Positions 1,978-64,000 of a stretch of 64,000 nt of DNA are shown here, in pieces. Origin of the DNA: an archaeon GW2011_AR15 (GTDB lineage: Archaea; Nanobdellota; Nanobdellia; Woesearchaeales; GW2011-AR15); assembly GCA_000830295.1 (NCBI GenBank), contig CP010425.1:35927-99926 (forward strand). Direction: 5' to 3'. A program made the position numbers and the translations under genes. Under the pieces are notes generated by a model, which was given only the letters and a program-made list of their open reading frames with translations, did no database searches and was not told where the DNA came from. How positions within the stretch are numbered: the stretch's first letter is position 1; the number at the start of each line of letters is the position of its first letter.

Positions 1978-2562
1978 CTATGGCATCCACTTGGTGTCTT
2001 CCTTTCCCTGCCTGTGGCTGGCTAAACGGGCTGCTGTGAAAAGATAGTCTGAAAGCCTGTTCATGTATTTCAGGATGTTCTTTTCTATCTCCTCTTCCCT
2101 CATCAGCCTTATTATTTGTCTCTCCGCCCTCCTGCATACGACCCTTGCCATGTGAAGCAGTGCGCTTTCTTCAGTGCCTCCTGCAAGTATAAAATTCTTC
2201 AGCACAGGAAGCTCTTCCTCATACATGTCAATAAGCCTTTCAAGCTTCTTGACCATATCCTCTGTCACCCTTGGGATCTTGTTTGCCATCGGGTTTCCGT
2301 CTATCTTTGACTGTGAAAGCACAGAGGGGTATGCGAGATTTGAGGAGATTGCGTGCAGGTCTTTCTGTATATCCATAAGATGCGATTTAAGGTCCTCCTC
2401 TTCCAGCTTTACTATGGCAAGGCCCAAGAATGCATTGGTCTCGTCGAGCACTCCGTATGCCTCTACTCTCGTTGTATCCTTCAGTGTCCTTGAGCCGTCG
2501 CAGAGTGAAGTCTCTCCTGTATCCCCTCTTTTAGTGTAGATTTTTATCTTCCTATCTGCCAA
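1978..2562 (-). CDS. PduO-type ATP:cob(I)alamin adenosyltransferase
   Basis: The N-terminus KIYTKRGDTGETSL and the helical-bundle C-terminus are typical of the PduO/MMAB family. Confidence 0.8.
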   Translation of the reverse strand: MADRKIKIYTKRGDTGETSLCDGSRTLKDTTRVEAYGVLDETNAFLGLAIVKLEEEDLKSHLMDIQKDLHAISSNLAYPSVLSQSKIDGNPMANKIPRVTEDMVKKLERLIDMYEEELPVLKNFILAGGTEESALLHMARVVCRRAERQIIRLMREEEIEKNILKYMNRLSDYLFTAARLASHRQGKEDTKWMP

Positions 2563-4573
2563 TGTTTATCACCTGCTCGCTCAGGCTGCCTTCCCTGTAA
2601 ACTGTTATGCCCCTGCAGCCGAGCTCATATGCCAGCAGGAAGGATTTCTTTATGTCCTCGGTGGTTGAGCTCTTTTGGAAATTTATTGTCTTTGAGATTG
2701 CATTGTCGACATGCTTCTGGAAAACTGACTGCATCTTTATGTGCCACTCAGGCTTTATGTCATAGGCAGTCACAAATATCTTCTTCATATCCTCGGGAAG
2801 CGCAAGGTTCTCAAGCGAGTTTGACTGGATTATCTTCCTTATTATATCCTCTGAGAAATCAATGCCGTGCTCTTTTGAGACTTCCTCAAGCACCTTGTTC
2901 ACATGCGTTATCTCTGTGTTCCCAAGGACTTTCCTTGTATATCCGAGCGCAAAGTTGGGCTCTATCCCCGGAGAGGTGTCTGCAAGTATGCTCCTTGCTC
3001 CTGTAGGCGCGATTGCTATCAGCGAGCAGTTCCTCAGCTTTGCCTTGTTGCAGAATACGCTTTGCTTCCACATCGGGAAGACTCCTTTTTCCTCTGCCAG
3101 CTTCTCTGACTCATTCCTGGCTGTTGATGATATGAACTTCATGACCTTCTCAGCAACCGCAAGCCCCTCCTCGGAATTATAGGGAATCCTGAGTTTGTAG
3201 AGCATATCCGCAAATCCAAGCACTCCCAGCCCTATTCTTCTGTTGCCCTTGGCCATGTCCTCTATCTTTTTCACAGGGAACCTGCCAAGGTCGACTATAT
3301 TGTCCAAAAATCTTACAGAAGACCTTATGACTTTCTCGAGGTTCTTCCATCTTATCTGCTTCCTCAGCACGAACCTTGAAAGGTTTATTGCGCCGAGGTT
3401 CCCTGCGTCATAAGGAAGCAGGAGCTGGTCTCCGCACGGGTCGGTTGTTTCTATCTTCCCCATATCTGGGAAAGGATTTCCTTCATTTATCCTGTCTATG
3501 AAAAGCACTCCGGGGTCCCCTGTCTTCCATGCCATCGTAACAATGAGGTGGAATATGTTGTTGGCATCAGCCATCTCAATTACTTCGCCGGTTGCAGGGT
3601 TCTTTATTGCATATTCCTTCCTTTTCTTGACAGCTTCCATGAACTCGTCTGTCATCTCGACAGATATATTGAAGTTCTTTATTTCCCCCCTCTCTTTCAT
3701 AGTTATGAATTCTATTATGTCAGGGTGTTCCACGCTGAGCGAGCCCATGTTGGCAGGCTTCCTGTTTCCCGGGACAACTGTAAGGTCAGATGCATGGTCA
3801 AACAATTTTATGAATGCTATGGGCCCTGATGAAAATCCTGCTGTTGTCTCGAGCACCTGTCCTTTCGGCCTCAGCCTTGAAAATGAGAATCCTGTGCCTC
3901 CCCCCAGCCTCTGTATAAGGGCTTTGTCATAGAGTGCCCTGAAAATCCCTTTCATGCTGTCCTCAACAGGAATTACAAAGCTGCTGTAGAGCATCCTGTT
4001 TGATGTGCCTGCATTCGCAAGTATCCTTCCTGAAGGTATAAATTCAAGCGAAGACAATATTGTAAAGAAATCTTCCTCTATCTCCTCTGTCTGCTTCTCG
4101 CTTTTCTTATATTTCTTTTCTACAGAAGCGACTGCTTTTGCTACTCTCCTGAACATCTCTTTCGGCGTTTCAATGATATTGCTTTTCCTGTCCCTTGCCA
4201 GGTATCTGGATTTTGCTATCAGCAGCCCGTTCACGCTCAGCCTTGAGTCATCCATCCTGCCGAGTATGCTCTGTTTTAGTTTTCTTAATTCAGTCCTTTT
4301 CTGCCTGTAGAGGATGAATGCCTTTGCCATCTCAGACTGGCCGTTCTCCATAAGGACTTTCTCAACAATGTCCTGCACTTCCTCCACAGAGATGATGTGG
4401 CCGTCCTGGGCTTTCTTTTCTATCTCAAGGATGACTTTTCCGGCAATCATATCAGGGAGCTCCTGATTATCTATATTTACAGCCAGCATCGTCTTCTCTA
4501 TTGCAGAAGAAACCTTGGCAGGGTCAAAGTCTGCTATTGTCCCGTCCCTTTTCCTTATTTTAGAAATCCCCAT
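2552..4573 (-). CDS. nrdJ: class II (adenosylcobalamin-dependent) ribonucleotide reductase NrdJ, with N-terminal ATP-cone
   Basis: The N-terminal roughly 100 aa form an ATP-cone (KIRKRDGTIADFDPAKV...). The RNR barrel carries the motifs VIPVEDSM and PCGDQLL. The protein is 673 aa. Confidence 0.8.
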   Translation of the reverse strand: MGISKIRKRDGTIADFDPAKVSSAIEKTMLAVNIDNQELPDMIAGKVILEIEKKAQDGHIISVEEVQDIVEKVLMENGQSEMAKAFILYRQKRTELRKLKQSILGRMDDSRLSVNGLLIAKSRYLARDRKSNIIETPKEMFRRVAKAVASVEKKYKKSEKQTEEIEEDFFTILSSLEFIPSGRILANAGTSNRMLYSSFVIPVEDSMKGIFRALYDKALIQRLGGGTGFSFSRLRPKGQVLETTAGFSSGPIAFIKLFDHASDLTVVPGNRKPANMGSLSVEHPDIIEFITMKERGEIKNFNISVEMTDEFMEAVKKRKEYAIKNPATGEVIEMADANNIFHLIVTMAWKTGDPGVLFIDRINEGNPFPDMGKIETTDPCGDQLLLPYDAGNLGAINLSRFVLRKQIRWKNLEKVIRSSVRFLDNIVDLGRFPVKKIEDMAKGNRRIGLGVLGFADMLYKLRIPYNSEEGLAVAEKVMKFISSTARNESEKLAEEKGVFPMWKQSVFCNKAKLRNCSLIAIAPTGARSILADTSPGIEPNFALGYTRKVLGNTEITHVNKVLEEVSKEHGIDFSEDIIRKIIQSNSLENLALPEDMKKIFVTAYDIKPEWHIKMQSVFQKHVDNAISKTINFQKSSTTEDIKKSFLLAYELGCRGITVYREGSLSEQVINIGR

Positions 4574-4627
4574 CTATCAGCCCCCGATATAATAAAGAAA
4601 TAATAGAAGTATTTTTAAAAGTTGTTA

Positions 4628-4652: not shown

Positions 4653-4690
4653 CGAAACCCGAATCATAAAATTGGTAAGTTCGGGTTTCG
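4653..4690 (-). terminator. perfect 11-bp-stem hairpin directly after the stop of the second RNR gene, followed by a U-rich tract in the transcript
   Basis: cgaaacccgaa at 4653-4663 and ttcgggtttcg at 4680-4690 are exact reverse complements with a 16-nt loop. The stop TAG (reverse strand) sits at 4691-4693. Confidence 0.45.
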
Positions 4691-6739
4691 CTATACAGTG
4701 CATACGCTGAAGCCGCAGTCCGGACATAGCACACACCCTTCCTGCTTGACAAGAGGCGCATCGCATTCCGGGCAGTTGGTCATCTGCTTTTTGTCGAAAC
4801 TCACCATGATTTTGCCTTCCGGCACCTTGTCATGCGCGGTTTTTCCTGACGATTCCACAACTATCACCTGTTCAGGCATCCCTTCAACTTCCAGCTCTTC
4901 TGTCTGGACAACTATTGTTTCCTCGGTCTCGACAACAACAGGCTCCGCTGAGCTCCTGGCCTCCTTCTTGACCTCTTTTATGTTCAGCACCTGGTTGCCC
5001 CTGCTTCCGTCCCTGTAGACTGTGCATCCCTTGCAGCCTGTCTTCCAGGCAAGCATGTATCCTTTCTTGACGTCATCTATGGTTGCGCTTGTGGCGAAAT
5101 TGATCGTCTTTGAGACTGCGTTTGTCACATATTTCTGGAATGCTGCCTGCATAAGTATGTGCTCCTCAGCTGATATGTTGAAAGAAACCTCAAACACTTT
5201 TTTCACATCTTCAGGGACTTCATCCAGGCCGTCAAGCGTTCCCTGCTCTGCAATCTTTTTCATAAGCTCTTCAGTATAGAATCCCCTTTCCCTGGCAACC
5301 CTCTCGAAGTGCTTATTCACGTAAGTGAACTGCTCTTTTATTGAATGGCTGTTCTTTATGTAGGCAAGGGCAAAGTTGGGCTCGCATCCTCCGCTTGTAT
5401 CCCCGACCATGCTGAGCGTCCCTGTCGGAGCAATTGCTGTTATGGCGCAGTTCCTAACTCTCCTGCCCTCTTTTTCAAATTCGCTGCCTTTCCATGCGGG
5501 AAAAACTTCCCTTTCCCTTGCAAGCTCTTCTGACATCTTCCAGCCTTCCTCATCAATAACTCTCATGACTTCTGAAGCCACCATCCTGCCTTCCTCGCTT
5601 GAATAGGGAAGCCCGAGCTGGTAGAGAAGGTCTGCAAATCCCAATACTCCAAGACCTATGCGCCTTGTCTTCTTGGCCATCCTGGTTATCTTCTCTGTAG
5701 GGTATTCCCCCGCATCTATGACATTGTCCAGGAAATGGATTGCTGTCCTGGTTGTCTTCCTGAGCTTATTCCAGTCAATCTCAATCCTGCCGTTGACTTT
5801 CCTGACCATCCTGTCAAGGTTTATTGAGCCGAGGTTGCATACCTCATAATCAAGAAGCCATATTTCCGCACAGGGATTTGTAGCCTTGAATAAGCCAATG
5901 TGCTTGATTTTATTGTGCCTGTTTGCTGTGTCTATGAAAAGCACGCCCGGCTCCCCTGTCTTCCAGGCGTGATATGCAATTTTGTTAAAGAGCTCTTTTG
6001 CCCTTACTGTTCTGGCAACCTGCATTGTGTGCGGATCTATGAGATCATACTCACCGTCAGCCTCGACTGCTTTCATGAATTTGTCGTCAAGCATGACTGA
6101 GATATTGAAATTTGTAAGCTGGGTAAGGTCATCCTTTGCTGTTATGAAATGCTCAATGTCAGGGTGGCTGATGTGGAATGTCCCCATCTGGGCCCCTCTC
6201 CTGTTGCCCTGCATTATTGTGCTGCACATTACATCAAATACCCTCATGAATGACAGTGGGCCTGAAGCAATCCCGCTGCATCCTGAAACCCATGAGCCGC
6301 CCGGCCTGAGTGTTGAGAAGCAGTATCCGACCCCGCCCCCCCTTTTCTGGATAAGCGCTGCCTCCTTGACTGCCTGGAATATGCCTTCCATGCTGTCCTC
6401 AACAGGGATTACAAAGCAGTTCGCAAGATTCTTTACAGGTGTGCCTGCATTTGCGATTGTCCTCCCGCCAGGGATGAACTCAAGCTTTGTAAGCATGTCA
6501 AGAAATTCTTTTTCTGTCTTTTCAACTTCCCCGTCTGGCCTGTACACTGCGTCCGGGCCTGCAATCTCCTTTGCTATTCTTTCGAACATGTCCAGAGGGG
6601 TCTCTACGACAGTCCCGTCTGCGTCCCTTTTCAGGTATTTTGCAAATATTATCCTAAGCTGGTTCTCGTTCAGCCCCAGTTTTTCTTCTTCACTGATGCT
6701 TTCCATAAATGTTTTGTAATCCTGCATTTTTCCGCTCAC
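4691..6739 (-). CDS. nrdJ: class II ribonucleotide reductase NrdJ paralogue, C-terminal zinc ribbon, no ATP-cone
   Basis: Clear paralogue of the upstream RNR (FVIPVEDSMEGIF, NPCAEIWL). It ends in CPECDAPLVKQEGCVLCPDCGFSVC. The protein is 682 aa. Confidence 0.8.
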   Translation of the reverse strand: MSGKMQDYKTFMESISEEEKLGLNENQLRIIFAKYLKRDADGTVVETPLDMFERIAKEIAGPDAVYRPDGEVEKTEKEFLDMLTKLEFIPGGRTIANAGTPVKNLANCFVIPVEDSMEGIFQAVKEAALIQKRGGGVGYCFSTLRPGGSWVSGCSGIASGPLSFMRVFDVMCSTIMQGNRRGAQMGTFHISHPDIEHFITAKDDLTQLTNFNISVMLDDKFMKAVEADGEYDLIDPHTMQVARTVRAKELFNKIAYHAWKTGEPGVLFIDTANRHNKIKHIGLFKATNPCAEIWLLDYEVCNLGSINLDRMVRKVNGRIEIDWNKLRKTTRTAIHFLDNVIDAGEYPTEKITRMAKKTRRIGLGVLGFADLLYQLGLPYSSEEGRMVASEVMRVIDEEGWKMSEELAREREVFPAWKGSEFEKEGRRVRNCAITAIAPTGTLSMVGDTSGGCEPNFALAYIKNSHSIKEQFTYVNKHFERVARERGFYTEELMKKIAEQGTLDGLDEVPEDVKKVFEVSFNISAEEHILMQAAFQKYVTNAVSKTINFATSATIDDVKKGYMLAWKTGCKGCTVYRDGSRGNQVLNIKEVKKEARSSAEPVVVETEETIVVQTEELEVEGMPEQVIVVESSGKTAHDKVPEGKIMVSFDKKQMTNCPECDAPLVKQEGCVLCPDCGFSVCTV

Positions 6740-6778
6740 CGTTCTCTTTAGTTTTTGTTATCCTTGAAATATACAAAC

Positions 6779-6826
6779 ACACAATATGTTGTGTCCCAAC
6801 ATATGAGAATCTACAATATGTTGTGT
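6779..6826. promoter_or_regulatory. tandem pair of NrdR-box-like 16-bp palindromes upstream of the second RNR gene
   Basis: ACACAATATGTTGTGT at 6779-6794 and CTACAATATGTTGTGT at 6811-6826 are 32 bp apart centre to centre. They match the acaCwAtATaTwGtgt NrdR consensus and abut a TATA-like GTATATTT next to the gene. Confidence 0.5.
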
Positions 6827-6901
6827 ATCATAATTAAGTAGGAAAATTAGTATTTAAACATTCCTACAAATGAAAATAGATAATGAAAAATATATTTTTA
6901 G

Positions 6902-29752: not shown

Positions 29753-30385
29753 ATGGGGTTTATAGCGGCTGCAGTAGAGCATGGCACATTTACAGCAGAT
29801 TACGACAAGTTTCTGAATGATCATTACAACCGTTCCCTCTCCCCGCTTCTAAGGAGGCTTGCCAGAAAAAAAGAGATTATTGACAAGTCTTTTTTTGAGT
29901 CCTGCTATGCGCTCTATTCCCTTGGCCTTGATACAAGCAAAGAAAAAAATGCCGCATTTTACGACAGAGGGTTCTACAGGCTGATAAGGGTAGCGAGGAA
30001 TGTCAATAATATAGGCTACAGAGACAGGATAGAAGAAGCTCATTCGGATTTCCCGATGTGGCTTCTCCCTACTGAGTTTATGAGCAGAACCATGCTTGAA
30101 GCAGAATATGTCTACAGCCTGCTCTACGATACCGACACAGAGCCGGAGATAAGAAGGACCCTTGATAGTGTTTTCCTCGGTTCTTATTATTTCGGCAGGG
30201 GGCGCTACGGGAGCACAGTGCACACCGGCCTCCTTATGATGGAAATAAAGGCAAAGCACGCAATCGGGAGAGACCTGGCTGAGAAATATTTCTACGGCAA
30301 CGGGCTCGATAAGAAACTGAAGCAGATGGCCTTCGACAAAAGGATAGATGAGATTGCTAAAATATATCTGAACAATCAAACATAG
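29753..30385 (+). CDS. hypothetical protein
   Basis: 210-aa ORF, no motif recognised. Confidence 0.35.
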   Translation: MGFIAAAVEHGTFTADYDKFLNDHYNRSLSPLLRRLARKKEIIDKSFFESCYALYSLGLDTSKEKNAAFYDRGFYRLIRVARNVNNIGYRDRIEEAHSDFPMWLLPTEFMSRTMLEAEYVYSLLYDTDTEPEIRRTLDSVFLGSYYFGRGRYGSTVHTGLLMMEIKAKHAIGRDLAEKYFYGNGLDKKLKQMAFDKRIDEIAKIYLNNQT

Positions 30386-30464
30386 CCCCGCAGTTAGGGC
30401 AGAGAACCTTGCAGTGCCTTTCATACATCTCATAGCCGCATCGTACACAGTGCATTTTCTTCAT
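30357..30464 (-). CDS. possible zinc-ribbon mini-protein (35 aa)
   Basis: Translation MKKMHCVRCGYEMYERHCKVLCPNCGAMFDCSDIF gives a CxxC...CxxC arrangement, reminiscent of RpoP-type ribbons. It overlaps the 3' end of the convergent ORF. Confidence 0.25.
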   Translation of the reverse strand: MKKMHCVRCGYEMYERHCKVLCPNCGAMFDCSDIF

Positions 30465-30590
30465 AGATAGAGAAAAGCAGCATTGCAATATAATATTTTT
30501 TAATTTTTAAGTTATCAGAGGGAAGTATCCCTCCGAACCACCCTCTGCTTATTCGAAACTTTTTTAATCTGGAAGGTTATTGGATAGGCT

Positions 30591-31139
30591 ATGAAGATAA
30601 AAATAGGCGTGATGGGCTCTTCTGAAAAAATCAATGATATGACTCTCGTGCGCAGGGCCAGGGAAGTTGGAAAGCATATTGCCAGGCACAACTGCATCCT
30701 TGTAAATGGGGCAACAACAGGTCTGCCTGACCAGGCTGCGCAGGGCGCAAAAGAGGCAGGCGGATTTGTCCTTGGGATTTCCCCGGCCGAGAACATGAAG
30801 GAGCACAAGAAAAGGTACAAGCTTCCTTCAAAAGGATATGACGCAATAATATTCACCGGATTCGGATTCAACCAGAGGAACATCCTCAACATAAGGACTT
30901 CTGATGCCCTTGTTTTCTTAAGGGGCTCTCTGGGAACACTGAATGAGTTCACAATTGCATTTGAGGACGGGAAGGTTATAGGCGTCCTGGAAAACATGGG
31001 CGGGATATCCAGCTTCTTTGACGAGCTTATCCAGCTTACAAAAAAGAAGACAGGAGCAAAGATAATCTACGAGGCAGACCCAAAAATTCTCATCAGCAGG
31101 CTTGTAAAGGAAGTAAAAGCAAGAGACAGCCGGCGCTGA
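30591..31139 (+). CDS. LOG/TIGR00725-family Rossmann-fold protein
   Basis: KIGVMGSS...GATTGLP and the GSLGTLNEF motif typical of the LOG/YvdD/TIGR00725 fold. Confidence 0.55.
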   Translation: MKIKIGVMGSSEKINDMTLVRRAREVGKHIARHNCILVNGATTGLPDQAAQGAKEAGGFVLGISPAENMKEHKKRYKLPSKGYDAIIFTGFGFNQRNILNIRTSDALVFLRGSLGTLNEFTIAFEDGKVIGVLENMGGISSFFDELIQLTKKKTGAKIIYEADPKILISRLVKEVKARDSRR

Positions 31140-31312
31140 TGTGTCCTAAACAACAGAAATAATTATAAACAAAAAAATATATCTCCTTATTTTCAGAATG
31201 AGCAATACAGGCTGTTCTGAAAAAATTTCTCAGGCACTTTGCTTTGTTCATCGCGTTAAGTCAGCAGGTTAGGGAATAAAATAAGGGGGTAGCAGCTCTT
31301 CAGGGAGAGTGA

Positions 31313-32239
<927 letters not shown>

Positions 32240-32240
32240 A

Positions 32241-32696
32241 ATGGCAGAAGAAAAAGTCGTGAAGATGGCTGTAACTGCGCTGAAAGAGGGTACTGTGATA
32301 GACCACGTACCTGCGGGCCAGGTTTTCAAGGTTGTTGATGTCATGAACCTCTATGAGTACAAGAAGGCGCTGAGGATCGGCATGTATCTTGACAGCAAAA
32401 CCTATGGAAAAAAAGATATCCTGAAGATTGAGGACAGGTATCTCACCCAGGACGAGGCCAATATGATTGCGCTAATAGCGCCGAATGCCACGATAAACAT
32501 AATCAAGGACTGGAAGGTCGCAAAGAAAATACAGGTCTCTGTCCCAGATGTTGTGACAGGGCTGAGGTGCGGCAACCCGAGATGCATAACAAGGTATGAT
32601 AAAATAAAGACCGTGTTCAGCGTGCTGGACAAAAAAACCCTGAAAGTAAGGTGCCACTACTGCGAGCATGTTTTCGGGAAAGAGGAAGTGATCTGA
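32241..32696 (+). CDS. pyrI: aspartate carbamoyltransferase regulatory subunit
   Basis: C-terminal zinc domain CGNPRC...CHYCEH. Lies immediately after pyrB. Confidence 0.85.
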   Translation: MAEEKVVKMAVTALKEGTVIDHVPAGQVFKVVDVMNLYEYKKALRIGMYLDSKTYGKKDILKIEDRYLTQDEANMIALIAPNATINIIKDWKVAKKIQVSVPDVVTGLRCGNPRCITRYDKIKTVFSVLDKKTLKVRCHYCEHVFGKEEVI

Positions 32697-33601
32697 TGAA
32701 AAAAGATTTCCTGAAGATGACCGACCTGACATCTCAGGAGCTGAAAGAAGTTATTGAGCTGGCTGTCCGGATAAAAAAAAATCCTGAGAAGTATTCCAAG
32801 AGTCTTTCCGGTAAAACTTTGCTGATGATTTTCGCCAAGCCTTCACTGAGGACAAGGGTGAGCTTTGAGACAGGCATGACAAAGTTAGGGGGGCATGCAA
32901 TATATTATGACATTGCGACTTCTCCTCTCGGCAGGGGCGAGACAATAGCTGATACTGCAAAGTGCTCTTCGCGCTATGTTGATATTATCTCTGCCAGGCT
33001 GTTTGAGCATGCTGATATTGTTGAACTGGCTAAGAATTCAGATGCCCCTGTCATAAACATGCTTACAAATCTTACACACCCGTGCCAGGGGCTTGCTGAT
33101 TTGATGACAATTAAGGAAAAGAAAGGAAAGCTGGAAGGGCTTAAGCTGGCATACCTGGGCGACGGGAACAATAATGTAACCCATTCTCTCCTGCTTGGCT
33201 GCGCTTTGAGCGGGATTAATATTTCTGTTGCAAGCCCCGAGGGAATGATGCCTGATGCTTCAATTGTTGCAGAGGCAAAGAAATTGGGAAAGGTTGTGAT
33301 TACGCATAATGCCGGGGAAGCGGCAAAAGACGCAGATGTCATTGTCACAGACACATGGATGAGCTACCACATCAGGCCCGAGAAAAAAGAAGAAAGGGTG
33401 AAAAAATTCAGGCCATACCAGGTCAATTCCAAGATAATGAAGCTGGCAAAGAAGGATGCCATTTTCATGCACTGCCTTCCTGCCTACAGGGATTATGAAG
33501 TAACTGCAGAGGTCATAGACGGCCCCCAGTCAGTTGTTTTTGACGAGGCAGAAAACAGGATGTGGACTGAGATGGCGCTTATGGTTGCACTGCTAAAATG
33601 A
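32696..33601 (+). CDS. ornithine-carbamoyltransferase-family enzyme with atypical substrate loop
   Basis: SLRTR, HPCQ, LGDGNNNVTHS and HCLPAY place it in the OTC-like clade. The canonical DxWxSMG loop reads TDTWMSYH. The ATG overlaps the pyrI stop by 1 nt. Confidence 0.65.
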   Translation: MKKDFLKMTDLTSQELKEVIELAVRIKKNPEKYSKSLSGKTLLMIFAKPSLRTRVSFETGMTKLGGHAIYYDIATSPLGRGETIADTAKCSSRYVDIISARLFEHADIVELAKNSDAPVINMLTNLTHPCQGLADLMTIKEKKGKLEGLKLAYLGDGNNNVTHSLLLGCALSGINISVASPEGMMPDASIVAEAKKLGKVVITHNAGEAAKDADVIVTDTWMSYHIRPEKKEERVKKFRPYQVNSKIMKLAKKDAIFMHCLPAYRDYEVTAEVIDGPQSVVFDEAENRMWTEMALMVALLK

Positions 33602-34818
33602 TAATAAAGGGCGGGAATGTTTTTCTTGACAGCAGGTTTGTTAAGAGGGATCTTTTTATTTCAGGGGAAAAGATAGTTTCTTCTTCATCCGGTGAAGTTA
33701 TAGATGCTTCAGGAAAATATGTTGTGCCCGGCCTGGTTGACATGCATGTACATTTCCGAGATTTTGGCGAGGAGCATAAGGAAGATTGGAGGAGCGGCTC
33801 TGAGGCTGCTCTTGCTGGAGGGATTACGACTGTGTTTGACATGCCCAACAATAAGGTTCCGATAACTTCTAAAAAGCTTTTAGATCAAAAGAGAGACAAA
33901 GTTTCTTCCAAAGCCCTTGTTGATTTTGAGCTATATATTTCTGTGAACAATTCCAATGTTGATGAGATTAATGAGAACAAAATTAAATTTGTCAAGCTGT
34001 ATTACGGCCATACAACAGGGGATAATAAGGTTGATGATGCCGGGGATATCTTCAAGAGAATCTCAAAGGATATTGTGATAGTTGTCCATGCCGAGGATAA
34101 CAGGGTGATGGAGGAGAACAGGAAGAAGTTTGATGTTTCAGAGAAGAGATATCATTCTCTGGTCAGGGATAATAAAGCAGAATACACTGCTGTAAAGGAT
34201 TTGATTGGGTTTGCTGAGAGGTATGGCAATAAACTGCATATTACCCATGTGAGCTGCAAGGAATCTGCTGAAATGATAAAAAATGCTAAGAAGAGAGGAG
34301 TTAAGGTTACCTGTGATACCTGTCCGCACTATCTTTTTTTAGATGATTCGCTTTATGATAAGATAGGGAACAGGGCAAAGGTAAACCCTGCCCTGAAGTC
34401 TGGAGAAGACAGAGAAGCATTGTGGAAATATCTGAATGACGGAACAATAGATTGTGTGTGTAGTGATCATGCGCCACATACATTGGAGGAGAAAAACAGG
34501 GATTATGAGAATTGCCCTTCCGGCTTTCCCGGAGTCGAGACAACACTGCCTTTAATGCTCACTGCTGTAAATGAGGGAAAGATAAAGCTTGAAGATTTTA
34601 TTCCAAAGATGACAACAGCGCCTGCAAAGATATTCGGCCTGGAGAGAAAAGGACAGCTTAAAGAAGGTTTTGATGCTGACGTTGTTATTATTGATTTGAA
34701 CAAGGAAGGAGCTATCTCCGGCAACAAATTGCAGACAAAGGTTAAGTGGAGTCCGTTTGAGGGGATGAAAACACAGGGGAGTAGCGTTAGAGTAATTATT
34801 ACTGACAAAGTATATTAG
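33598..34818 (+). CDS. pyrC: dihydroorotase
   Basis: Amidohydrolase metal motif DMHVHFR. 406 aa within the pyr cluster. Confidence 0.75.
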   Translation: MIIKGGNVFLDSRFVKRDLFISGEKIVSSSSGEVIDASGKYVVPGLVDMHVHFRDFGEEHKEDWRSGSEAALAGGITTVFDMPNNKVPITSKKLLDQKRDKVSSKALVDFELYISVNNSNVDEINENKIKFVKLYYGHTTGDNKVDDAGDIFKRISKDIVIVVHAEDNRVMEENRKKFDVSEKRYHSLVRDNKAEYTAVKDLIGFAERYGNKLHITHVSCKESAEMIKNAKKRGVKVTCDTCPHYLFLDDSLYDKIGNRAKVNPALKSGEDREALWKYLNDGTIDCVCSDHAPHTLEEKNRDYENCPSGFPGVETTLPLMLTAVNEGKIKLEDFIPKMTTAPAKIFGLERKGQLKEGFDADVVIIDLNKEGAISGNKLQTKVKWSPFEGMKTQGSSVRVIITDKVY

Positions 34819-34828
34819 AGCAAAACGG

Positions 34829-35383
34829 CTACGCAGTAATCCTGCTGTTTCTCAGAGCATTCTGGTACCAAGCTAGATTCGCACTAATGAGCTGGCTGTT
34901 TTGTTCCGATGGTAGCTTTAATACATCAACGCCATATTTCCCCAAAACATAAAACGCCCCTATATCAGCAACCAGTTCTTTTTCATCGTGAGAGCATTTT
35001 TCAAAATGCTCATATCCACTAAGTTCTATATCAAGTCCTTTCTGCTCTAGTTTTTCCTGGAGCAGATAGATTTGCCCTATCGCGTGCAGGACATGAGCCT
35101 GCTCATGCCCAAGCCTGTATAGGTTAGTTATGTTGCTGGCAGAATACTGGTAGAAAGCAATCCATATTGTATTATTGTCTAAAGTTAAAGACATAACTCT
35201 TGCCCCTGGTTTTTCATGCCTGTATTTTTCCAGCTCTTTCTCTATCCCTTCTTCAGAGCCCATCCACATTTTGTACACTTGTTTTGTAAACTCTGTGACA
35301 TCAGGGACAAAGCCAAGATCCAGATAAGCATGGTTCTCTCTCTGCACTGTTATTCCTAAAGCTGTCAGTTGAATATCAGTCAT
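34829..35383 (-). CDS. hypothetical protein with HExxH motif
   Basis: An HEQAH zinc-metallopeptidase-like motif lies inside GHEQAHVLHAIG. Confidence 0.35.
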   Translation of the reverse strand: MTDIQLTALGITVQRENHAYLDLGFVPDVTEFTKQVYKMWMGSEEGIEKELEKYRHEKPGARVMSLTLDNNTIWIAFYQYSASNITNLYRLGHEQAHVLHAIGQIYLLQEKLEQKGLDIELSGYEHFEKCSHDEKELVADIGAFYVLGKYGVDVLKLPSEQNSQLISANLAWYQNALRNSRITA

Positions 35384-35430
35384 AACCAGGCAAAAACAAC
35401 TGCAATTTATAAATATTATTGTTTTAGTTA

Positions 35431-36501
35431 CTACTCAGTACTAACATCTATCCCGACAGCCTCTCTGACATTCCTGAAGCCGTCCCTCTTCAGAAATCCC
35501 ACAATCCCTCTGTTTATGTTTTTAGCCATCATAGGCCCTTCATAAATAAACCCGGTATAGACCTGGACCAAAGAAGCGCCTGCCTTAATCTTCTCATAAG
35601 CATCCTCTGCTGTGAACACTCCGCCTACTCCGATAATAGGCAGCTTCCCTTTTGTCTTCTTATAGATATGCCTGATAAACTCTGTTGCTGTCCTTGTCAA
35701 TGGCCTGCCGCTCAACCCTCCGGCCTCATTTATTTTAGTCCTCAGCCCTTTCCTCGAAACTGTGCCGTTGACAGCTATCACGCCTGATATTTTTGTCTGC
35801 ATGCACACATCAACAAATTCATCCAGCTCTTCCCACGTCAGGTCAGGCGAGACCTTGACGAACAGGGGCTTATTCTTCCTGTTGGCCTTCTGCAGTGTTT
35901 TTATTATTTTCAATAAACTGCTCTTGTCCTGCAGCTTCCTCAGCCCCTGTGTATTAGGGGAGGAAACATTTATTGTCATGAAATCAGCAAAATCATAGAG
36001 CTTCTCATAGGTATAGAGATAATCCAAATAAGCCTCTTCAAGGGAGGTGTCTTTTGATTTCCCGATATTGAGCCCGACTATGAGCCTCTTATGTTTCACA
36101 GCTCTTAATTTCCCGGCTGCCCTGTCCGCGCCCATGTTGTTGAAGCCCATCCTGTTTATCAGGGCAAGGTCCTTCGGTAGCCTGAATATCCTCGGCTTCT
36201 CATTTCCCGGCTGCTCATTCCTTGTTATTGCGCCTACCTCAATGTGGCCGAAGCCAAGGGAGGGCATAATCTCTATCAGCCTGCATTCCTTGTCAAAGCC
36301 TGCAGCTATGCCCATGGGATTGTCAAACTTCATGCCTGCGACCTCTGTCCTCAGCATCGGATGGGAGTAGCCATAGAGTGATTTCAGCAGGCGTCTGGTC
36401 AGGGCAAATTTCCCGAAAAAAGAGAGTGAAGACGAGACAAAACCATGGATTTTTTCAGGGTCGGCTTTGAAAAGAATCGGCCTTATAATAGCTTTATACA
36501 T
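35431..36501 (-). CDS. pyrD: dihydroorotate dehydrogenase (class 2-like)
   Basis: DHOD barrel motifs GIAAGFDK, GFGHIEVG, NVSSPNT and GVGG. The start is trimmed to MYKAII. Confidence 0.8.
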   Translation of the reverse strand: MYKAIIRPILFKADPEKIHGFVSSSLSFFGKFALTRRLLKSLYGYSHPMLRTEVAGMKFDNPMGIAAGFDKECRLIEIMPSLGFGHIEVGAITRNEQPGNEKPRIFRLPKDLALINRMGFNNMGADRAAGKLRAVKHKRLIVGLNIGKSKDTSLEEAYLDYLYTYEKLYDFADFMTINVSSPNTQGLRKLQDKSSLLKIIKTLQKANRKNKPLFVKVSPDLTWEELDEFVDVCMQTKISGVIAVNGTVSRKGLRTKINEAGGLSGRPLTRTATEFIRHIYKKTKGKLPIIGVGGVFTAEDAYEKIKAGASLVQVYTGFIYEGPMMAKNINRGIVGFLKRDGFRNVREAVGIDVSTE

Positions 36502-36586
36502 GCTAAAATGATAATAAGCCCAAGGTAGTATATATAATTGATTGTTGGATAAAAAATATAAACTAAGGATTTTTACCTTATCCCAA

Positions 36587-37228
36587 ATGAAAGAGAGAGT
36601 CGCTGAGATACTTCTTAAGATAAAAGCTGTCGAGATATGCCCAAACAGCCCTTTCACGTACACATCAGGCATGATAAGCCCGATCTACATAGACAACAGG
36701 AAGATAATCTCCTATCCTGAAGAGAGAAGAAAGATACTTGAAGACCTGTGCGTCCTGATAGGCTCCCTCAATATAAAATTTGATGTGATTGCAGGAGTGG
36801 CGACAGCAGGCATACACTGGGCAGCATGGCTCTCAGAAAAATACAACAAGCCCATGGTATACATAAGGGACAGCGCAAAGGGCCATGGAAAGCAGAACCA
36901 GATCGAAGGCTATCTGGAAAAAGGAAAGAAAGTCCTTGTCATAGAGGACCACATAAGCACAGGCGGAAGCTCAATAGCTGCTGTGAAGGCTGTAAGGGAG
37001 TTTGGCTGCGAAGTGACTGACTGCATTGCAATAACAACATATGAATTCAGGGAAGCAAAGGAAAAATTTGATGAGGAAAAATGCGGCCTGCATACGCTGA
37101 CTGATTTCACGACCCTGATAAAGACAGCTGCTGAAAAGGGATATATCAGCAGTGAAGACGAGAAAAAAGTGCTGGAATGGAATAAATCCCCCCAGAAATG
37201 GGGAAAAAAGCACGGCTTTGAAAAATGA
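36587..37228 (+). CDS. pyrE: orotate phosphoribosyltransferase
   Basis: PRPP-binding motif VLVIEDHISTGGS. The start is taken at MKERV. Confidence 0.8.
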   Translation: MKERVAEILLKIKAVEICPNSPFTYTSGMISPIYIDNRKIISYPEERRKILEDLCVLIGSLNIKFDVIAGVATAGIHWAAWLSEKYNKPMVYIRDSAKGHGKQNQIEGYLEKGKKVLVIEDHISTGGSSIAAVKAVREFGCEVTDCIAITTYEFREAKEKFDEEKCGLHTLTDFTTLIKTAAEKGYISSEDEKKVLEWNKSPQKWGKKHGFEK

Positions 37229-38043
37229 GCTATCTTGACATCCTGAAAGAGAAAGCAGAAGAAGCAAACAGCATCCTCTGCTTCGGCATTGACCCTGTGC
37301 TTGAGAAGATGCCTGAGAAAGATATTGTAAACTTCTATTCAGACATATTTAACGCTATGGAAGGCGAGGATGTTTCTGTCCCATCAGTAAAGCCGAACAT
37401 TGCATTCTTTGAACAGTACGGACTGGAGGGATTATCCTCATTAAAGAAATTGCTTGAAGACATAAAAAAAAGAGACATCAGCATCATACTTGACGCAAAG
37501 AGGGGAGACATAGGGACAACAGCAAAGGCCTATGCAAAATCTGTTTTTGAATACTGGCAGGCAGATGCAGTAACCCTTCACCCCTATCTCGGCCATGATT
37601 CAATATCTCCCTTCCTTGAATACAAAAACAAGGGCGCATATGTGCTCAACAGGACTTCCAACAAAAGTGCTGTTGAGGTGCAGGATCTGAAATCAGACGG
37701 CAAGCCTGTCTATGAAAAAGTCTCTGAATTAATACTGAAATGGCATTCTCCCGGGCTTGGCTCTGTAATAGGCGCAACATATCCTAAAGAGCTTGAGCAT
37801 CTCTCAAATTTATTTGTAAAATCAGGAAAACAGGTGCCATTATTGATCCCCGGAGTCGGAAGCCAGGGAGGAAGCGCTGAGGAGGTTGTTTCCATTCTGA
37901 AAAAGACAAACAATCCTCTTTGGCTGCACAGGGTCAACAGCTCTTCGGGCATAAGCTATGCCTATCTGGAAAAAGACACTGGTGATTATGCAGGCGCGGC
38001 TGTTAAAGAGATGAAAAGGCTGAATAAAATTCTGAAATTATAG
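37225..38043 (+). CDS. pyrF: orotidine 5'-phosphate decarboxylase (type 2)
   Basis: DAKRGDIGTT motif. 272 aa. ATGA overlap with pyrE. Confidence 0.8.
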   Translation: MSYLDILKEKAEEANSILCFGIDPVLEKMPEKDIVNFYSDIFNAMEGEDVSVPSVKPNIAFFEQYGLEGLSSLKKLLEDIKKRDISIILDAKRGDIGTTAKAYAKSVFEYWQADAVTLHPYLGHDSISPFLEYKNKGAYVLNRTSNKSAVEVQDLKSDGKPVYEKVSELILKWHSPGLGSVIGATYPKELEHLSNLFVKSGKQVPLLIPGVGSQGGSAEEVVSILKKTNNPLWLHRVNSSSGISYAYLEKDTGDYAGAAVKEMKRLNKILKL

Positions 38044-38078
38044 AAAGGCTTAAATAATACTACCTTTCAATAGTAACA

Positions 38079-39095
38079 ATGCGAAAAGCCAGCATGAAAA
38101 TTTATTATGATCCTCACCAATTCTCTGATGTTAAGGCACTCATGAATCTGTACTGGTATACGGCCGGTAAAAGCAGCAAGGCGATATTATTCAAAGATTC
38201 CCCTGTAGTAAATGACCATAACAGCGTATCTGAAGAAAAACTTCCTATAGCAGAGACTTGGAGAGGCAATACGCTTTGTATCAGCACTTACGCAGATTTT
38301 TCTAATTCATTGAACTCGGGCGGTTTAACCCTTCAGATAGATGCAAAACTTCTCCATAACTGCGGCTCTGTTTCTTCATTGGAGGATAAAATAAAGGCAA
38401 GAAAAAAACTGGACATTCCAGATGATATGCCTATTGTAGTGATAGGGTTTGTGAAAGGATCAAACATTGGCTTGCTTAACCATCTGCTGAAAAAGATTTC
38501 AGAGCTAAGCAGGATATATCTCTTTCCCAGCTGGGGGACACTGGGCACTCTGCCGCATAACCCAAACTTGATGAAGCATCCGAATATAGAAATAATAGAT
38601 ACATATGGTGAGCTTGAGAATTATTTTAAGTGTGCTGATATCGCCCTTTATGCTGACACAATTTCACCAAGGGAGGGGATAATGCACAATTATATTGAGG
38701 CAACAGCAGGCGGATTGCTTTACTGCGTTGAGCCAAGCAGGTCAAGAAGCCAGTATGGATTCAAGGAACTGCTCAAGGGAGGCTCAATAGTTTCATGCCA
38801 AAGTCTAGATGAGGTGAGCAACAGGATTGCAGTGCATCTTGGGTGCGGGACTCTGGAAAAAGATATCGAAGCCTCACAGATACCGAGAGATCGGCACATA
38901 AAAAAAACTATTGACACCTATCTCCCTGTATTAGCAAAATGGATAAACTTTATATCAGATGCAGGAAACCATGCTGAAATAGAAGGGTTTCCTGCTGCAG
39001 ACCTTAAAGTGTACTGGAGAAAAGACCCTCTTGTTGTCAGGCTTCTGCATCCTGTCAGCAGATATAAAGGAGTGTCAGACAGTATAGTGCCTTAA
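38079..39095 (+). CDS. hypothetical protein, weak resemblance to GT-B glycosyltransferase C-terminal half
   Basis: The segment RKKLDIPDDMPIVVIGFV resembles the GT1/GT4 nucleotide-sugar domain. Confidence 0.3.
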   Translation: MRKASMKIYYDPHQFSDVKALMNLYWYTAGKSSKAILFKDSPVVNDHNSVSEEKLPIAETWRGNTLCISTYADFSNSLNSGGLTLQIDAKLLHNCGSVSSLEDKIKARKKLDIPDDMPIVVIGFVKGSNIGLLNHLLKKISELSRIYLFPSWGTLGTLPHNPNLMKHPNIEIIDTYGELENYFKCADIALYADTISPREGIMHNYIEATAGGLLYCVEPSRSRSQYGFKELLKGGSIVSCQSLDEVSNRIAVHLGCGTLEKDIEASQIPRDRHIKKTIDTYLPVLAKWINFISDAGNHAEIEGFPAADLKVYWRKDPLVVRLLHPVSRYKGVSDSIVP

Positions 39096-48418: not shown

Positions 48419-48727
48419 ATGGGAGAACTTTACGATAAGGAATACAAAGAAGGCACAAAAAAATTTCTGGATGAGACAAAGGAAGCTGCAGAGGCATACA
48501 AGCAGTACCAAAAGGCTCTTTCTGACACCAGCCCGTTTGACAAGAAGACAAATGAGCTTATCATGGTTGCTGTCAGCGCAGCACTGCAGTGCGATTACTG
48601 CATTGAGACGCATTCAAAAAGGGCAAAGCTCGCAGGCGCAACAGACAAAGAGATTGCTTTTGCAGTGCATCTTGCGGCTTCTGTAAAGCACGGGGCAACT
48701 GTAAGCTACGGAGTGAAAGCCCTCTGA
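48419..48727 (+). CDS. AhpD-like carboxymuconolactone decarboxylase family protein
   Basis: CDYCIETH motif (CxxC...H) of the AhpD core. Confidence 0.6.
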   Translation: MGELYDKEYKEGTKKFLDETKEAAEAYKQYQKALSDTSPFDKKTNELIMVAVSAALQCDYCIETHSKRAKLAGATDKEIAFAVHLAASVKHGATVSYGVKAL

Positions 48728-48728
48728 G

Positions 48729-49604
48729 ATGCAATCCGTAATTATGAAGCCCGAGTGGCTCAGGATAATGCCTCCAAAGGAAAAGTTCAGTGAGGTAAAA
48801 GGGATAATAAGCAGCCACAGGCTCAACACTGTCTGCCAGGAAGCGCACTGCCCAAATATGTCAGAGTGCTGGTCTTCTGGGACAGCAACATTCATGCTGA
48901 TGGGAGACACCTGCACAAGAGGATGCAGGTTCTGCGCTGTAAAGACAGGAAAGCCGGGAGAGCTTGACAGGACAGAGCCGGCGAGGCTGGCAAAGGCAAT
49001 AAAAGAGCTCGGGGTCTTTGATTATGTTGTGCTTACTTCTGTTGACCGCGATGACCTTGAAGACCAGGGCGCCAATCATCTTGCCGAATGCATAAGGGAA
49101 ATAAAAAAGCAGTATCCGGGGATTATTGTTGAAATCCTTATCCCTGATTTCAGGGGAGACAAAGAGCTTCTCAGAATTATAGCTGATGCCGGGCCTGAGG
49201 TAATTGCGCACAATGTTGAGACTGTTGAAAGGCTTCAGAGGAAAGTGAGGGATTACAGGGCAAACTACATGCAGTCATTGTCAGTTCTCCGGAATGTGAA
49301 AAAGCTCAGCAGAAAAATCTATACAAAAACTTCCATAATGCTCGGGCTTGGTGAAAAAGAGGATGAAGTAATCCAGGCAATGAAGGATTTAAGAGCCATT
49401 GATGTTAATATTATAACATTTGGGCAATACCTAAGACCATCACAGAAACATTTGGCAGTCAGCGAATATGTAAAGCCAGAAAAATTTAAATATTATGAAG
49501 AGGTTGCCAATAGCCTGGGGTTTTTATATTGCGCGTCTGGCCCTTTTGTAAGGAGCTCATATAAAGCAGGGGAATTATTTTTGAAGGGGAAAATAAATGG
49601 TTAA
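48729..49604 (+). CDS. lipA: lipoyl synthase
   Basis: CPNMSEC auxiliary-cluster motif, radical SAM CTRGCRFC, and KPEWL at the N-terminus. Confidence 0.9.
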   Translation: MQSVIMKPEWLRIMPPKEKFSEVKGIISSHRLNTVCQEAHCPNMSECWSSGTATFMLMGDTCTRGCRFCAVKTGKPGELDRTEPARLAKAIKELGVFDYVVLTSVDRDDLEDQGANHLAECIREIKKQYPGIIVEILIPDFRGDKELLRIIADAGPEVIAHNVETVERLQRKVRDYRANYMQSLSVLRNVKKLSRKIYTKTSIMLGLGEKEDEVIQAMKDLRAIDVNIITFGQYLRPSQKHLAVSEYVKPEKFKYYEEVANSLGFLYCASGPFVRSSYKAGELFLKGKING

Positions 49605-50661
49605 GAAAGTCATAGGGAAATTCGAGGTTGAATACCTGCAGGTTCTTGATGAGGAAGGCAATGCTGATGAGGCCCTCATGCCGAAGCTGACAGGCAGGCA
49701 GATAAAAGAGCTCTATGAAAACATGATCCTTGTCAGGACTTTTGATGACAAGGCTTTCTCAATGCAGAGACAGGGGAGGATAGGCTCATACCTCCAGGTA
49801 AAGGGGCAGGAAGCAGCACAGGTGGGCTCTGTCTATGCCCTACAGGACAAGGACTGGCTGTTCCCTATGTACAGGAGCAGTGGGGCATTGCTTGCAAGGA
49901 AGCAGCCCATGCATCTTCTCTATCTTTACTGGGGCGGAGATGAACGCGGTTTGAAAAGTCCGGAGAATGTGAATAATTTTCCCATTGCAATACCTGTCGG
50001 GACGCAGATACCTCATGCAGTAGGTGCTGCCTGGGCATCAAATCTCCTTGGAAAAAAAGAAGTCTCGCTGGTATTCTTCGGAGAAGGCGCAACATCAAAG
50101 GCAGATTTCCACACTGCAATGAATTTTGCAGGAGTCTATCAGGTTCCGTGCATTCTTGTCTGCGAGAACAACCAGTGGGCAATTTCTGTGCCGAGAAAAA
50201 TACAGACGCATTCAGAGACAATAGCACAGAAGGGAATTGCATACGGGGTTAAGGGAATCCAGGTCGACGGGAACGATATTTTTGCAGTCTACAAAGCAGT
50301 AAAAGAGGCTGTTGATGATGCAAGAGCAGGCAAAGGCCCTGCATTAATAGAGTGCATGACCTACAGGATAGGGGACCACAGCACAAGCGATGACGCAAAA
50401 AAATACAGGGGCGAAAAAGAAGTCGAGGAGTGGGCGAAAAAAGACCCTGTGCTCAGGCTTGAGAGATATATGAAAAAGAAAAAGCTGCTTGATGAAGCGT
50501 ATAAGAAAAAAGTCCTTGAGAATGCAAAAGAGACTGTTGAGAAAGAAGTGAAGAAATATGAGGAGTATCCTGCGCCTGACAGGGAAGATATCTTCAAGTA
50601 CACATTTGCGGAGATGCCGCAGCAGCTGAAAGAGCAGTTTGAGGAGTTCAAGAATGGTTAG
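49597..50661 (+). CDS. pdhA: 2-oxoacid (pyruvate) dehydrogenase E1 alpha subunit
   Basis: TPP-binding GDG...N region and a phosphorylation-loop-like YRIGDHSTSDD. Confidence 0.8.
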   Translation: MVKKVIGKFEVEYLQVLDEEGNADEALMPKLTGRQIKELYENMILVRTFDDKAFSMQRQGRIGSYLQVKGQEAAQVGSVYALQDKDWLFPMYRSSGALLARKQPMHLLYLYWGGDERGLKSPENVNNFPIAIPVGTQIPHAVGAAWASNLLGKKEVSLVFFGEGATSKADFHTAMNFAGVYQVPCILVCENNQWAISVPRKIQTHSETIAQKGIAYGVKGIQVDGNDIFAVYKAVKEAVDDARAGKGPALIECMTYRIGDHSTSDDAKKYRGEKEVEEWAKKDPVLRLERYMKKKKLLDEAYKKKVLENAKETVEKEVKKYEEYPAPDREDIFKYTFAEMPQQLKEQFEEFKNG

Positions 50662-51625: not shown

Positions 51626-51637
51626 TTGAAAAATAGA

Positions 51638-52846: not shown

Positions 52847-52861
52847 AGTAAATAAAAAACA

Positions 52862-53284
52862 TTGGGGGTGCAAAAAAAAATGGTAAACTGGTTATCTGTA
52901 CTAGGAACTGCATTAGCAGGCTTTTTGCTGGGATGGATTTGGTATGGCCCGTTGTTCGGAAAACAGTGGATGAAGCTGATGAAAATATCCAAGAAAGACA
53001 TGCAAAAAGCAAAGAAGAAAAGCATGGTTACACCGATGGTCGGCGGGTTCCTTGCTACGGTTGTTATGGCTTATGTGCTTGATACATTCGTTAGACTTGT
53101 GGCTGCCACAACTTTTGTTGAGGGAGCAATCCTCGGATTCTGGCTGTGGCTGGGGTTCGTGGCAACTGTTCTCCTGGGAAAAGTCCTGTGGGAGAACAAA
53201 TCATTCAGCCTCTACCTTATTGACTCGCTGCATTATCTTGCTGTGCTTGGGTTGATGGGCGGTCTATTGGCTGTCTGGATATAA
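52862..53284 (+). CDS. DUF1761-like membrane protein
   Basis: 140 aa with four TM helices. Confidence 0.35.
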   Translation: MGVQKKMVNWLSVLGTALAGFLLGWIWYGPLFGKQWMKLMKISKKDMQKAKKKSMVTPMVGGFLATVVMAYVLDTFVRLVAATTFVEGAILGFWLWLGFVATVLLGKVLWENKSFSLYLIDSLHYLAVLGLMGGLLAVWI

Positions 53285-57524: not shown

Positions 57525-57534
57525 AGGAGGAAAC

Positions 57535-63290: not shown

Positions 63291-63328
63291 GACACATATT
63301 TAAATAGAAAAACATCCTAATAGCATAA

Positions 63329-63778: not shown

Positions 63779-63779
63779 A

Positions 63780-64000
63780 ATGACAAACACAAAAACATTG
63801 AAAGTGTTTTATTTAGGGTTAACATTAATTGTATTTATCATTCTAACTATCTCTTTAATAATTAATATTAGTATCCCCTTTATTGGGTGGGTTTTTGGAT
63901 TGTCTGGTATAGGACTCTCAATCTTCCTATTTTTTTATATTGATTCAACTAAGAAAATCAACAAGGACACAAATCAAATTTTTCATATTCTAGAAGAAAA
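63780..64000 (+). CDS. second small membrane protein, partial (runs off window end)
   Basis: The ATG at 63780 opens a hydrophobic ORF (MTNTKTLKVFYLGLTLIVFIILT...) that reaches the window edge. It lies in the AT-rich island. Confidence 0.3.
   Translation, partial: MTNTKTLKVFYLGLTLIVFIILTISLIINISIPFIGWVFGLSGIGLSIFLFFYIDSTKKINKDTNQIFHILEE

Follow-up and report, generated by a model that had tools for sequence, protein, structure and literature searches.

The 64-kb stretch of DNA analysed here (the window) carries two nrdJ paralogues, nrdJ1 and nrdJ2, separated by a gap of 117 nt and followed, past nrdJ2, by genes for a PduO-type adenosyltransferase, ThyA, DHFR and MsrB. The coordinates of both genes and of the elements around them are collected in Table 1. 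The original prediction had named the nrdJ paralogue downstream of the promoter region as a class II ribonucleotide reductase (RNR), and Pfam agrees with this assignment. NrdJ1 displays the canonical active-site motifs NCFV, NPCAE and CNLG together with a C-terminal Cys-rich tail (CPEC...CPDC), and no ATP-cone was recognized in it by Pfam.

The proteins encoded in the window are identical to those of archaeon GW2011_AR15 (AR15) and of the metagenome-assembled genomes (MAGs) GCA_013331675.1 and GCA_018303605.1 (Candidatus Woesearchaeota archaeon), and they recur in several assemblies from groundwater. Genes for diphthamide synthesis, Spt5-NGN, Cbf5 and Hjc in the window confirm that the host is an archaeon. 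The archaeal context proposed in the original prediction is thus borne out, specifically as DPANN (Woesearchaeota).

Two regions of the window (approximately 30000-39000 and 48700-52900) hold metabolic gene sets, including a complete pyrimidine biosynthesis cluster (pyrB, pyrI, pyrC, pyrD, pyrE, pyrF), a pyruvate/2-oxoacid dehydrogenase E1/E2 set, a lipoate ligase and a cupredoxin/COX2-like protein; for a DPANN genome, the metabolism represented by the pyrimidine and 2-oxoacid dehydrogenase sets is fairly rich. At the end of the window (55416-64000, plus strand), and also in the loci L089-L091, L173 and L174, the gene of a LamG-domain protein precedes a cluster of very large RHS/YD-repeat (TcdB/SpvB-like) genes accompanied by small downstream ORFs. 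The boundaries of these genes vary by strain: the product has 1488 aa in the window but 1871 aa in two assemblies, and the gene is split in DUFY01. A 430-aa product (61998-63290) is recorded for the two MAGs alone and not for the 1.158-Mb GW2011_AR15 contig. This cluster is a predicted polymorphic-toxin-like locus in a DPANN archaeon.

Table 1. Features of the nrdJ1 promoter region, the two nrdJ genes and the NrdJ2 orthologues. Positions refer to the window, except for the orthologues, which are numbered in their own loci.
Feature	Position	Strand	Description
nrdJ2	2552..4573	-	673 aa; Pfam PF03477 (ATP-cone), PF00317, PF02867
TATA-like CTTTTAAAAATA	4610..4621	-	Upstream of nrdJ2
Hairpin AAACCCGAA/TTCGGGTTT	4655..4688	-	9-bp stem directly after the nrdJ1 stop codon; read from the sequence
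nrdJ1	4691..6727	-	Class II RNR, 678 aa; Pfam PF00317, PF02867; gene under the predicted operator
Shine-Dalgarno-like GGTGA	6736..6740	-	8 nt before the ATG at 6727; read from the sequence
TATA-like string GTATATTT	6767..6774	-	TATA-like element of the original prediction
Predicted operator	6779..6826		48-bp element comprising both boxes and the linker
Predicted NrdR box 2 (promoter-proximal)	6779..6794	-	ACACAATATGTTGTGT on the plus strand, ACACAACATATTGTGT in gene orientation
Linker between boxes	6795..6810	.	16 bp, canonical 15-16 bp length
Predicted NrdR box 1 (promoter-distal)	6811..6826	-	CTACAATATGTTGTGT on the plus strand, ACACAACATATTGTAG in gene orientation
Predicted archaeal TATA box TTTAAATA	6851..6858	-	24 nt upstream of box 1; putative promoter element
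AT-rich block AAAATATATTTTTCATTAT	6880..6898	-	Just past the stop of the upstream 100-aa ORF; conserved in the five aligned family loci
NrdJ2 orthologue, L175	13528-15543		Degenerate signature
NrdJ2 orthologue, L176	12075-14078		Degenerate signature
NrdJ2 orthologue, L177	18478-20493		Degenerate signature

Directly upstream of nrdJ1 lie two 16-bp boxes that have an identical 14-mer in common and start 32 bp apart, the end of box 2 being 51 nt from the ATG. The original prediction had described here two NrdR-box-like palindromes at this distance, and both could be located. NrdR operators have been reported to be made up of a pair of partially palindromic 16-bp boxes in which C4, A6, A8, T9, T11 and G13 are highly conserved, joined by a linker of mostly 15-16 bp, less often 26-27 bp, the length of which is conserved but not the sequence (PMC13584703). 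Box 1 and box 2 each contain all six of these residues, and the key positions, the palindromy and the linker agree with the earlier claim that the sequence and the three-helical-turn spacing match the NrdR operator. At 32 bp, three turns, the two boxes are on the same face of the helix.

The published regular expression for NrdR boxes was not significant when used alone, producing around 3 pairs per random 64-kb window; because it is too loose, a position weight matrix (PWM) was used in place of it. The matrix was derived from 46 boxes found as pairs at most 350 nt upstream of nrdJ or nrdR in other, mostly bacterial, organisms, with every copy of the AR15 locus left out. With this independent PWM, box 2 (20.2 bits) and box 1 (19.3 bits) are the first and second sites of the 64-kb window, the third-best site reaching only 10.3 bits, and the median of the training boxes is 15.1 bits. 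The pair scores 39.5 bits, whereas the best pair in 300 Markov-1 random 64-kb sequences reaches 9.1 ± 2.9 bits, with a maximum of 19.7; this comparison with background had been proposed along with the original prediction and speaks in its favour. Among the 171 nrdJ loci compared, the AR15 box pair ranks first by PWM pair score.

Closer relatives of NrdJ1 were obtained by protein search and locus look-up and not from scans of genome and metagenome contigs, among whose listed matches to the NrdJ1 query most were relatives of about 50% identity and two were close (L007, 75%; L092, partial, 69%). The protein search recovered an orthologue clade 69-80% identical to NrdJ1, assigned to Woesearchaeota or Nanoarchaeota where named. 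We define as the family the window plus five sister loci (L007, L175, L176, L177 and L178), corresponding to six loci and species with NrdJ1 proteins 69-78% identical. The gene order RDD, NfeD, small ORF, nrdJ1 is common to the five sister loci.

One of these, L007 (CAZHYZ010000004.1), is labelled 'uncultured Methanosarcinales archaeon'. It is syntenic with and homologous to the window, with identities of 77% for Dph2, 54% for NfeD, 50% for RDD, 60% for orf100 and 75% for NrdJ1. Given that L007 is homologous gene by gene to a Woesearchaeota window, we rejected the Methanosarcinales label as a taxonomic guide; it is probably a binning or naming error.

All six family loci have a box pair at exactly 32 bp (16-bp linker) directly upstream of nrdJ1, and those of the five sister loci score 25-38 bits with the PWM. 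Mean pairwise identities, calculated from a box-anchored alignment of the window and four sister loci (five in all), are 0.73 for box 1 and 0.72 for box 2, in comparison with 0.32 for the linker, 0.35 for the 45 nt upstream and 0.31 for the 22 nt downstream. The linkers of the window and L007 are identical at only 4 of 16 positions. The sixth locus, L178, which lies outside these identity values, keeps the box pair too. Three of the family boxes differ at a key position, in each case only at the central dinucleotide, where changes are tolerated in NrdR boxes (PMC13584703, 2026). Since the boxes were kept in five sister species while the linker and flanks diverged, the site is under purifying selection and, judged by this pattern, functional, displaying the predicted footprint of a protein-binding site whose spacing is constrained but whose linker sequence is not.

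In gene orientation, the stop codon of the upstream 100-aa membrane-protein ORF (6902) is followed by the AT-rich block, the TATA-like TTTAAATA, 24 nt, box 1, the 16-nt linker, box 2, 4 nt, the string GTATATTT, GGTGA and the ATG of nrdJ1. The motif TTTAWAWA, preceded by AAT, is located 21-33 nt upstream of box 1 in 6 of 6 family loci and is, apart from the boxes, the sole other conserved promoter element. Three other loci from Woesearchaeota/Nanoarchaeota (L009, L180 and L182) have it as well, at 26-27 nt upstream of box 1, and in a fourth (L067) it is 3 nt upstream; altogether, 9 of 11 Woesearchaeota-type loci have it at 21-33 nt. In archaea, the transcription start is usually found about 22-25 nt past the TATA box. 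From the 24 nt that separate TTTAAATA from box 1, the start is predicted, probably, at the edge of box 1, which would place the operator at approximately +1 to +48.

The remaining elements of this region are less distinctive. The RDD-NfeD-orf100 genes upstream may have an oligo-T terminator in the AT-rich block, or the block may serve as a second promoter element, but either assignment is a guess. The Shine-Dalgarno-like GGTGA is replaced by GGTGG/GGGG in the sister loci. A sigma-70 promoter scan of the nrdJ1 upstream region gave matches no more frequent than in shuffled sequences, and a bacterial sigma-70 promoter was rejected on this result.

The original prediction had pointed to GTATATTT as the TATA-like element. 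The string is present and abuts box 2, but it is unconserved and probably not the promoter. Were it the promoter, the same NrdR operator would lie upstream of the TATA box, and NrdR would occlude BRE/TATA or block read-through from the upstream genes as a roadblock. Its distance of 39 nt from the ATG is a plausible TATA-to-start spacing that would leave a short leader, and a weak sigma-70-like match ends there, though at the frequency of shuffles. Against this arrangement, the string is not conserved in L007, L175, L176, L177 or L178, whereas all family loci have kept the TTTAWAWA motif upstream of box 1. Furthermore, box 2 ends only 21 nt before the ATG in L176 and 16 nt before it in L177, which is too short for a TATA box plus 25 nt, so that GTATATTT cannot be a promoter shared by the family. 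We consider this alternative unlikely, and we interpret the 48-bp element as very probably an NrdR operator within the archaeal promoter of nrdJ1, the class II RNR gene of a Woesearchaeota (DPANN) archaeon.

The extent of the control exerted by this predicted operator can be judged from the elements between the two nrdJ genes. Judging by the hairpin that follows the stop codon of nrdJ1, the NrdR-controlled unit may end past this gene. Upstream of nrdJ2, the TATA-like CCTTTAAAAA(TA) is conserved in L175 and L177, two loci in which other genes lie between nrdJ1 and nrdJ2, and no NrdR box pair was found upstream of nrdJ2 in the window, L175 or L177. nrdJ2 seems to have a separate, NrdR-independent promoter. 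Given the hairpin and the conserved TATA-like element free of boxes, the predicted operator would certainly govern nrdJ1, while its control of nrdJ2 and the genes downstream is doubtful.

The nrdJ2 product itself is unusual. Both redox-active cysteines are replaced (NCFV to SSFV and CNLG to GNLG), NPCxE is changed to DPCGD, and there is no C-terminal Cys-rich tail, but NrdJ2 retains the thiyl cysteine and the ATP-cone. This degenerate signature (SSFV, DPCGD, GNLG) is found in all four orthologues compared, and nrdJ2 always adjoins the cobalamin adenosyltransferase gene. Similar degenerate signatures are present in P0411, P0433, P0463, P0464, P0533 and P0544, which are 50%-identity cluster representatives near NrdJ2. 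NrdJ2 is probably a conserved, nucleotide-sensing partner to the cone-less NrdJ1 and not itself catalytic, and no paper was found on a degenerate paralogue of this type. A related arrangement is displayed by the Woesearchaeota-type locus L180 (9143-16547), where a box pair is followed by nrdR, a cone-less nrdJ, two other genes, an nrdJ with ATP-cone and CobA. In the ATP-cone NrdJ of this locus the first redox cysteine is kept (LISCFVLP). Pairs of NrdJ paralogues with and without the cone are thus not restricted to the AR15 family.

The regulator expected at such boxes is widespread. The original prediction had considered NrdR to be essentially bacterial, which is contradicted by its occurrence in 22% of archaeal genomes, next to 77% of bacterial ones (PMC13584703), and by the many NrdRs of Woesearchaeota. 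In L009, L067, L180 and L182, nrdR lies directly behind the box pair and adjoins nrdJ (in the order box pair, nrdR, nrdJ). The NrdR from L009 matches over its full length the structures of the E. coli (9gex, E = 3e-37) and S. coelicolor (7p37, 2.8e-32) proteins, and in the Woesearchaeota NrdRs the zinc-binding cysteines C3, C6, C31 and C34 and the motifs DSR, RRRR and RFTT are invariant, with Pfam domains PF22811 and PF03477. By these features, the comparator proteins are genuine NrdRs, with a predicted zinc ribbon ahead of an ATP-cone. When two Woesearchaeota NrdRs were used as a profile, at least 120 NrdR clusters were retrieved, several of them named Woesearchaeota or Nanoarchaeota by NCBI. 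Among the archaeal nrdJ loci from outside DPANN (Bathyarchaeia, Nitrososphaeria, Methanoperedens, Thermoplasmata, Altiarchaeales and Hodarchaeota), no box pair of at least 17 bits was found.

In the AR15 family, nrdR is not a neighbour of the operator. Searches of all six-frame ORFs with an HMM of 239 NrdRs, and by phmmer with the E. coli protein, found no nrdR in the 64-kb window, and none was present in the 10 kb beyond each of its ends (approximately 84 kb covered in all) or within 10 kb of nrdJ1 in the fetched sister loci. Across about 170 loci the HMM detected nrdR in other organisms only; later loci were judged for nrdR by their Pfam gene tables. In two NrdR profile searches of a collection of 5.8 billion proteins, no GW2011_AR15 protein was among the best 120 of at least 8000 matches. 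Comparing candidate NrdRs with the family NrdJ1s by accession and assembly, and opening the multi-member clusters, linked no NrdR to the family, and a heuristic based on amino-acid composition was non-discriminating. Considering that the operator is strong and conserved and that NrdR is prevalent in the phylum, we infer that nrdR is in all likelihood encoded elsewhere in the AR15 genome, outside the approximately 84 kb examined.

A variant of the system was observed in locus L184 (4115-6442; P0385; GCA_053532335.1, JAIYPE010000104.1), where an NrdR-type zinc ribbon (MKCPSCGSAETKVIDTRES...) is fused directly to the ATP-cone of NrdJ. The NrdJ part is catalytically canonical. This gene has TTTAAATA upstream, together with two NrdR boxes that are 30 bp apart and separated by a 14-bp linker, each box having the six key positions. 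The fusion is on record on one contig only and may thus be an assembly artefact, although the single ATP-cone shared by its two parts argues for a true fusion. From this layout, the enzyme may bind its own operator and repress its own gene.

With P0385 in mind, the AR15 family could possess a strongly selected NrdR operator but no canonical NrdR, the boxes being read by another zinc-ribbon protein, for instance a rearranged or RNR-linked one. We regard this as improbable; the milder reading, in which a bacterial-type nucleotide-sensing repressor would be wired to the +1 region of TBP/TFB promoters, is much more likely.

The operator might also be an orphan, descended from an ancestor with box pair, nrdR and nrdJ, in which NrdR was lost and the site is a relic or decaying. 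That nrdR adjoins nrdJ in L009, L067, L180 and L182 but is missing from this place in 6 of 6 family loci would fit such a history, as would the failure to find nrdR within the approximately 84 kb examined. A relic would nevertheless decay like its flanks, whereas the AR15 boxes are the top-scoring pair of the data set and were kept at about 72% identity and an exact 32-bp spacing across six species amid near-random flanks, which makes an orphan operator very improbable.

The same negative search, together with P0385, in which NrdJ carries a zinc ribbon and whose gene has a box pair, could be taken to mean that in the AR15 lineage the boxes are read by a different DNA-binding protein and not by a canonical zinc-ribbon/ATP-cone NrdR. 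Neither NrdJ1 nor NrdJ2 of AR15 has an N-terminal zinc ribbon, and the retention of the six NrdR-critical positions and of the linker length points to the same reader as elsewhere, so we give this proposal very little credence. That the element works at the RNA level in the nrdJ1 leader, as hairpins or a riboswitch, or is a repeat arisen by chance, can be practically dismissed, for although both palindromes would be transcribed and foldable if transcription started at box 1, a structured leader or RNA family was rejected because Rfam yielded nothing above threshold in the leader (best score 16.2 bits vs a gathering score of 37.4) and its folding was no better than that of shuffles (z = -0.30), the covariation expected of a conserved leader structure is not visible in the six loci, and a chance repeat is excluded by the PWM pair statistics and the conservation in sister loci.

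An operator read by NrdR also raises the issue of its origin. The original prediction had suggested, as one of two options, that the RNR cassette was acquired together with its operator. In a crude neighbour-joining tree, built without support values from 614 trimmed columns of 56 NrdJ sequences, the family NrdJ1 proteins form their own clade beside the NrdJ2 clade and DPANN sequences and are nested in no bacterial group. This placement and the archaeal TATA promoter argue against a bacterial cassette having been acquired recently along with its operator, a scenario that finds no support here. Archaeal NrdR may still have an ancient bacterial origin.

In bacteria, NrdR binds both boxes as a tetramer once the outer site of the ATP-cone holds dATP in place of ATP (PMC13584703; PMC9110341), and the box pairs lie in the promoter region of RNR operons, where they overlap the transcription start or the site bound by the polymerase. 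Applied to AR15, this model would have a tetramer of NrdR loaded with dATP and ATP occupy both boxes when dNTPs are plentiful. Positioned at +1 to +48, behind a TATA box bound by TBP/TFB, the repressor would block the recruitment or escape of RNA polymerase, and the synthesis of the catalytic NrdJ1 would be shut off; NrdR carrying ATP only would not bind DNA, and nrdJ1 would be expressed. NrdR binding, its dependence on dATP/ATP, the transcription start and repression as the direction of the effect are in this model predicted by analogy with the bacterial system.

The AR15 locus shares with the bacterial NrdR systems (S. coelicolor nrdRJ and nrdAB; E. coli nrdAB, nrdHIEF and nrdDG) the two 16-bp boxes, the six conserved positions and the 15-16-bp linker, as well as, by prediction, the location of the boxes in an RNR promoter overlapping the RNA polymerase region. 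S. coelicolor nrdRJ has a class II RNR as its target too. Unlike these systems, the AR15 promoter is archaeal, with a TATA box 24 nt upstream of box 1 and no -35/-10 elements, and hence the machinery occluded would be TBP/TFB/RNAP. In addition, nrdR is unlinked to nrdJ1 in AR15, where the regulation is predicted from the sequence.

The archaeal repressors MDR1, Phr, LrpA and TrmB bind at or past the TATA box and block the recruitment of RNA polymerase. The predicted AR15 operator resembles theirs in its place between the TATA box and the region that is transcribed early, with steric exclusion as the likely mode of action; MDR1, Phr, LrpA and TrmB differ from the predicted AR15 NrdR in belonging to unrelated families with unrelated operators and in having no nucleotide sensing by an ATP-cone. 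Closer to AR15 are the loci L009, L067, L180 and L182, which belong to the same phylum-level group and have a 31-32-bp spacing, a class II target and the same layout of TATA box and box pair, with the TATA box 26-27 nt upstream of box 1 in 3 of 4. In these loci, unlike the AR15 family, where the pair stands directly before nrdJ1, it precedes nrdR and then nrdJ, so that NrdR is presumably autoregulated. An association of NrdR with RNR in archaea is likewise seen in the haloarchaeal nrdR-nrdAB and nrdR-nrdBA operons, which are of class I, have nrdR adjacent and were judged to be transferred from bacteria (PMC3019208). For AR15 the association depends on an NrdR predicted to be encoded elsewhere, and it differs from the haloarchaeal case in its class II target and in a clade that is not nested in bacteria.

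The presence of NrdR in archaea is already in the literature, so that the AR15 locus is a clean further example and leaves the understanding of NrdR itself unchanged. Box surveys and all experiments in the recent NrdR papers concern bacteria only, and their supplementary files contain nothing on archaeal taxa. Our literature search found no paper in which NrdR is connected with DPANN archaea or archaeal promoters, no experimental study of NrdR with the archaeal transcription machinery, and no description of the archaeal promoter geometry combined with an unlinked nrdR. The NrdJ2-type paralogue, with an ATP-cone but no redox cysteines, and the fusion of a zinc ribbon to NrdJ may be more novel than the operator.

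The AR15 locus and its ten relatives provide a concrete conserved layout, with a TATA box, a distance of approximately 24-27 nt and two boxes at a predicted +1 to +48. The first part of it, from the TATA box to box 1, is a defined geometry amenable to in vitro work. The layout would show how a bacterial-type repressor fits onto the archaeal basal machinery, and it predicts that the dNTP supply of genome-reduced DPANN archaea would be under nucleotide-sensing transcriptional control.
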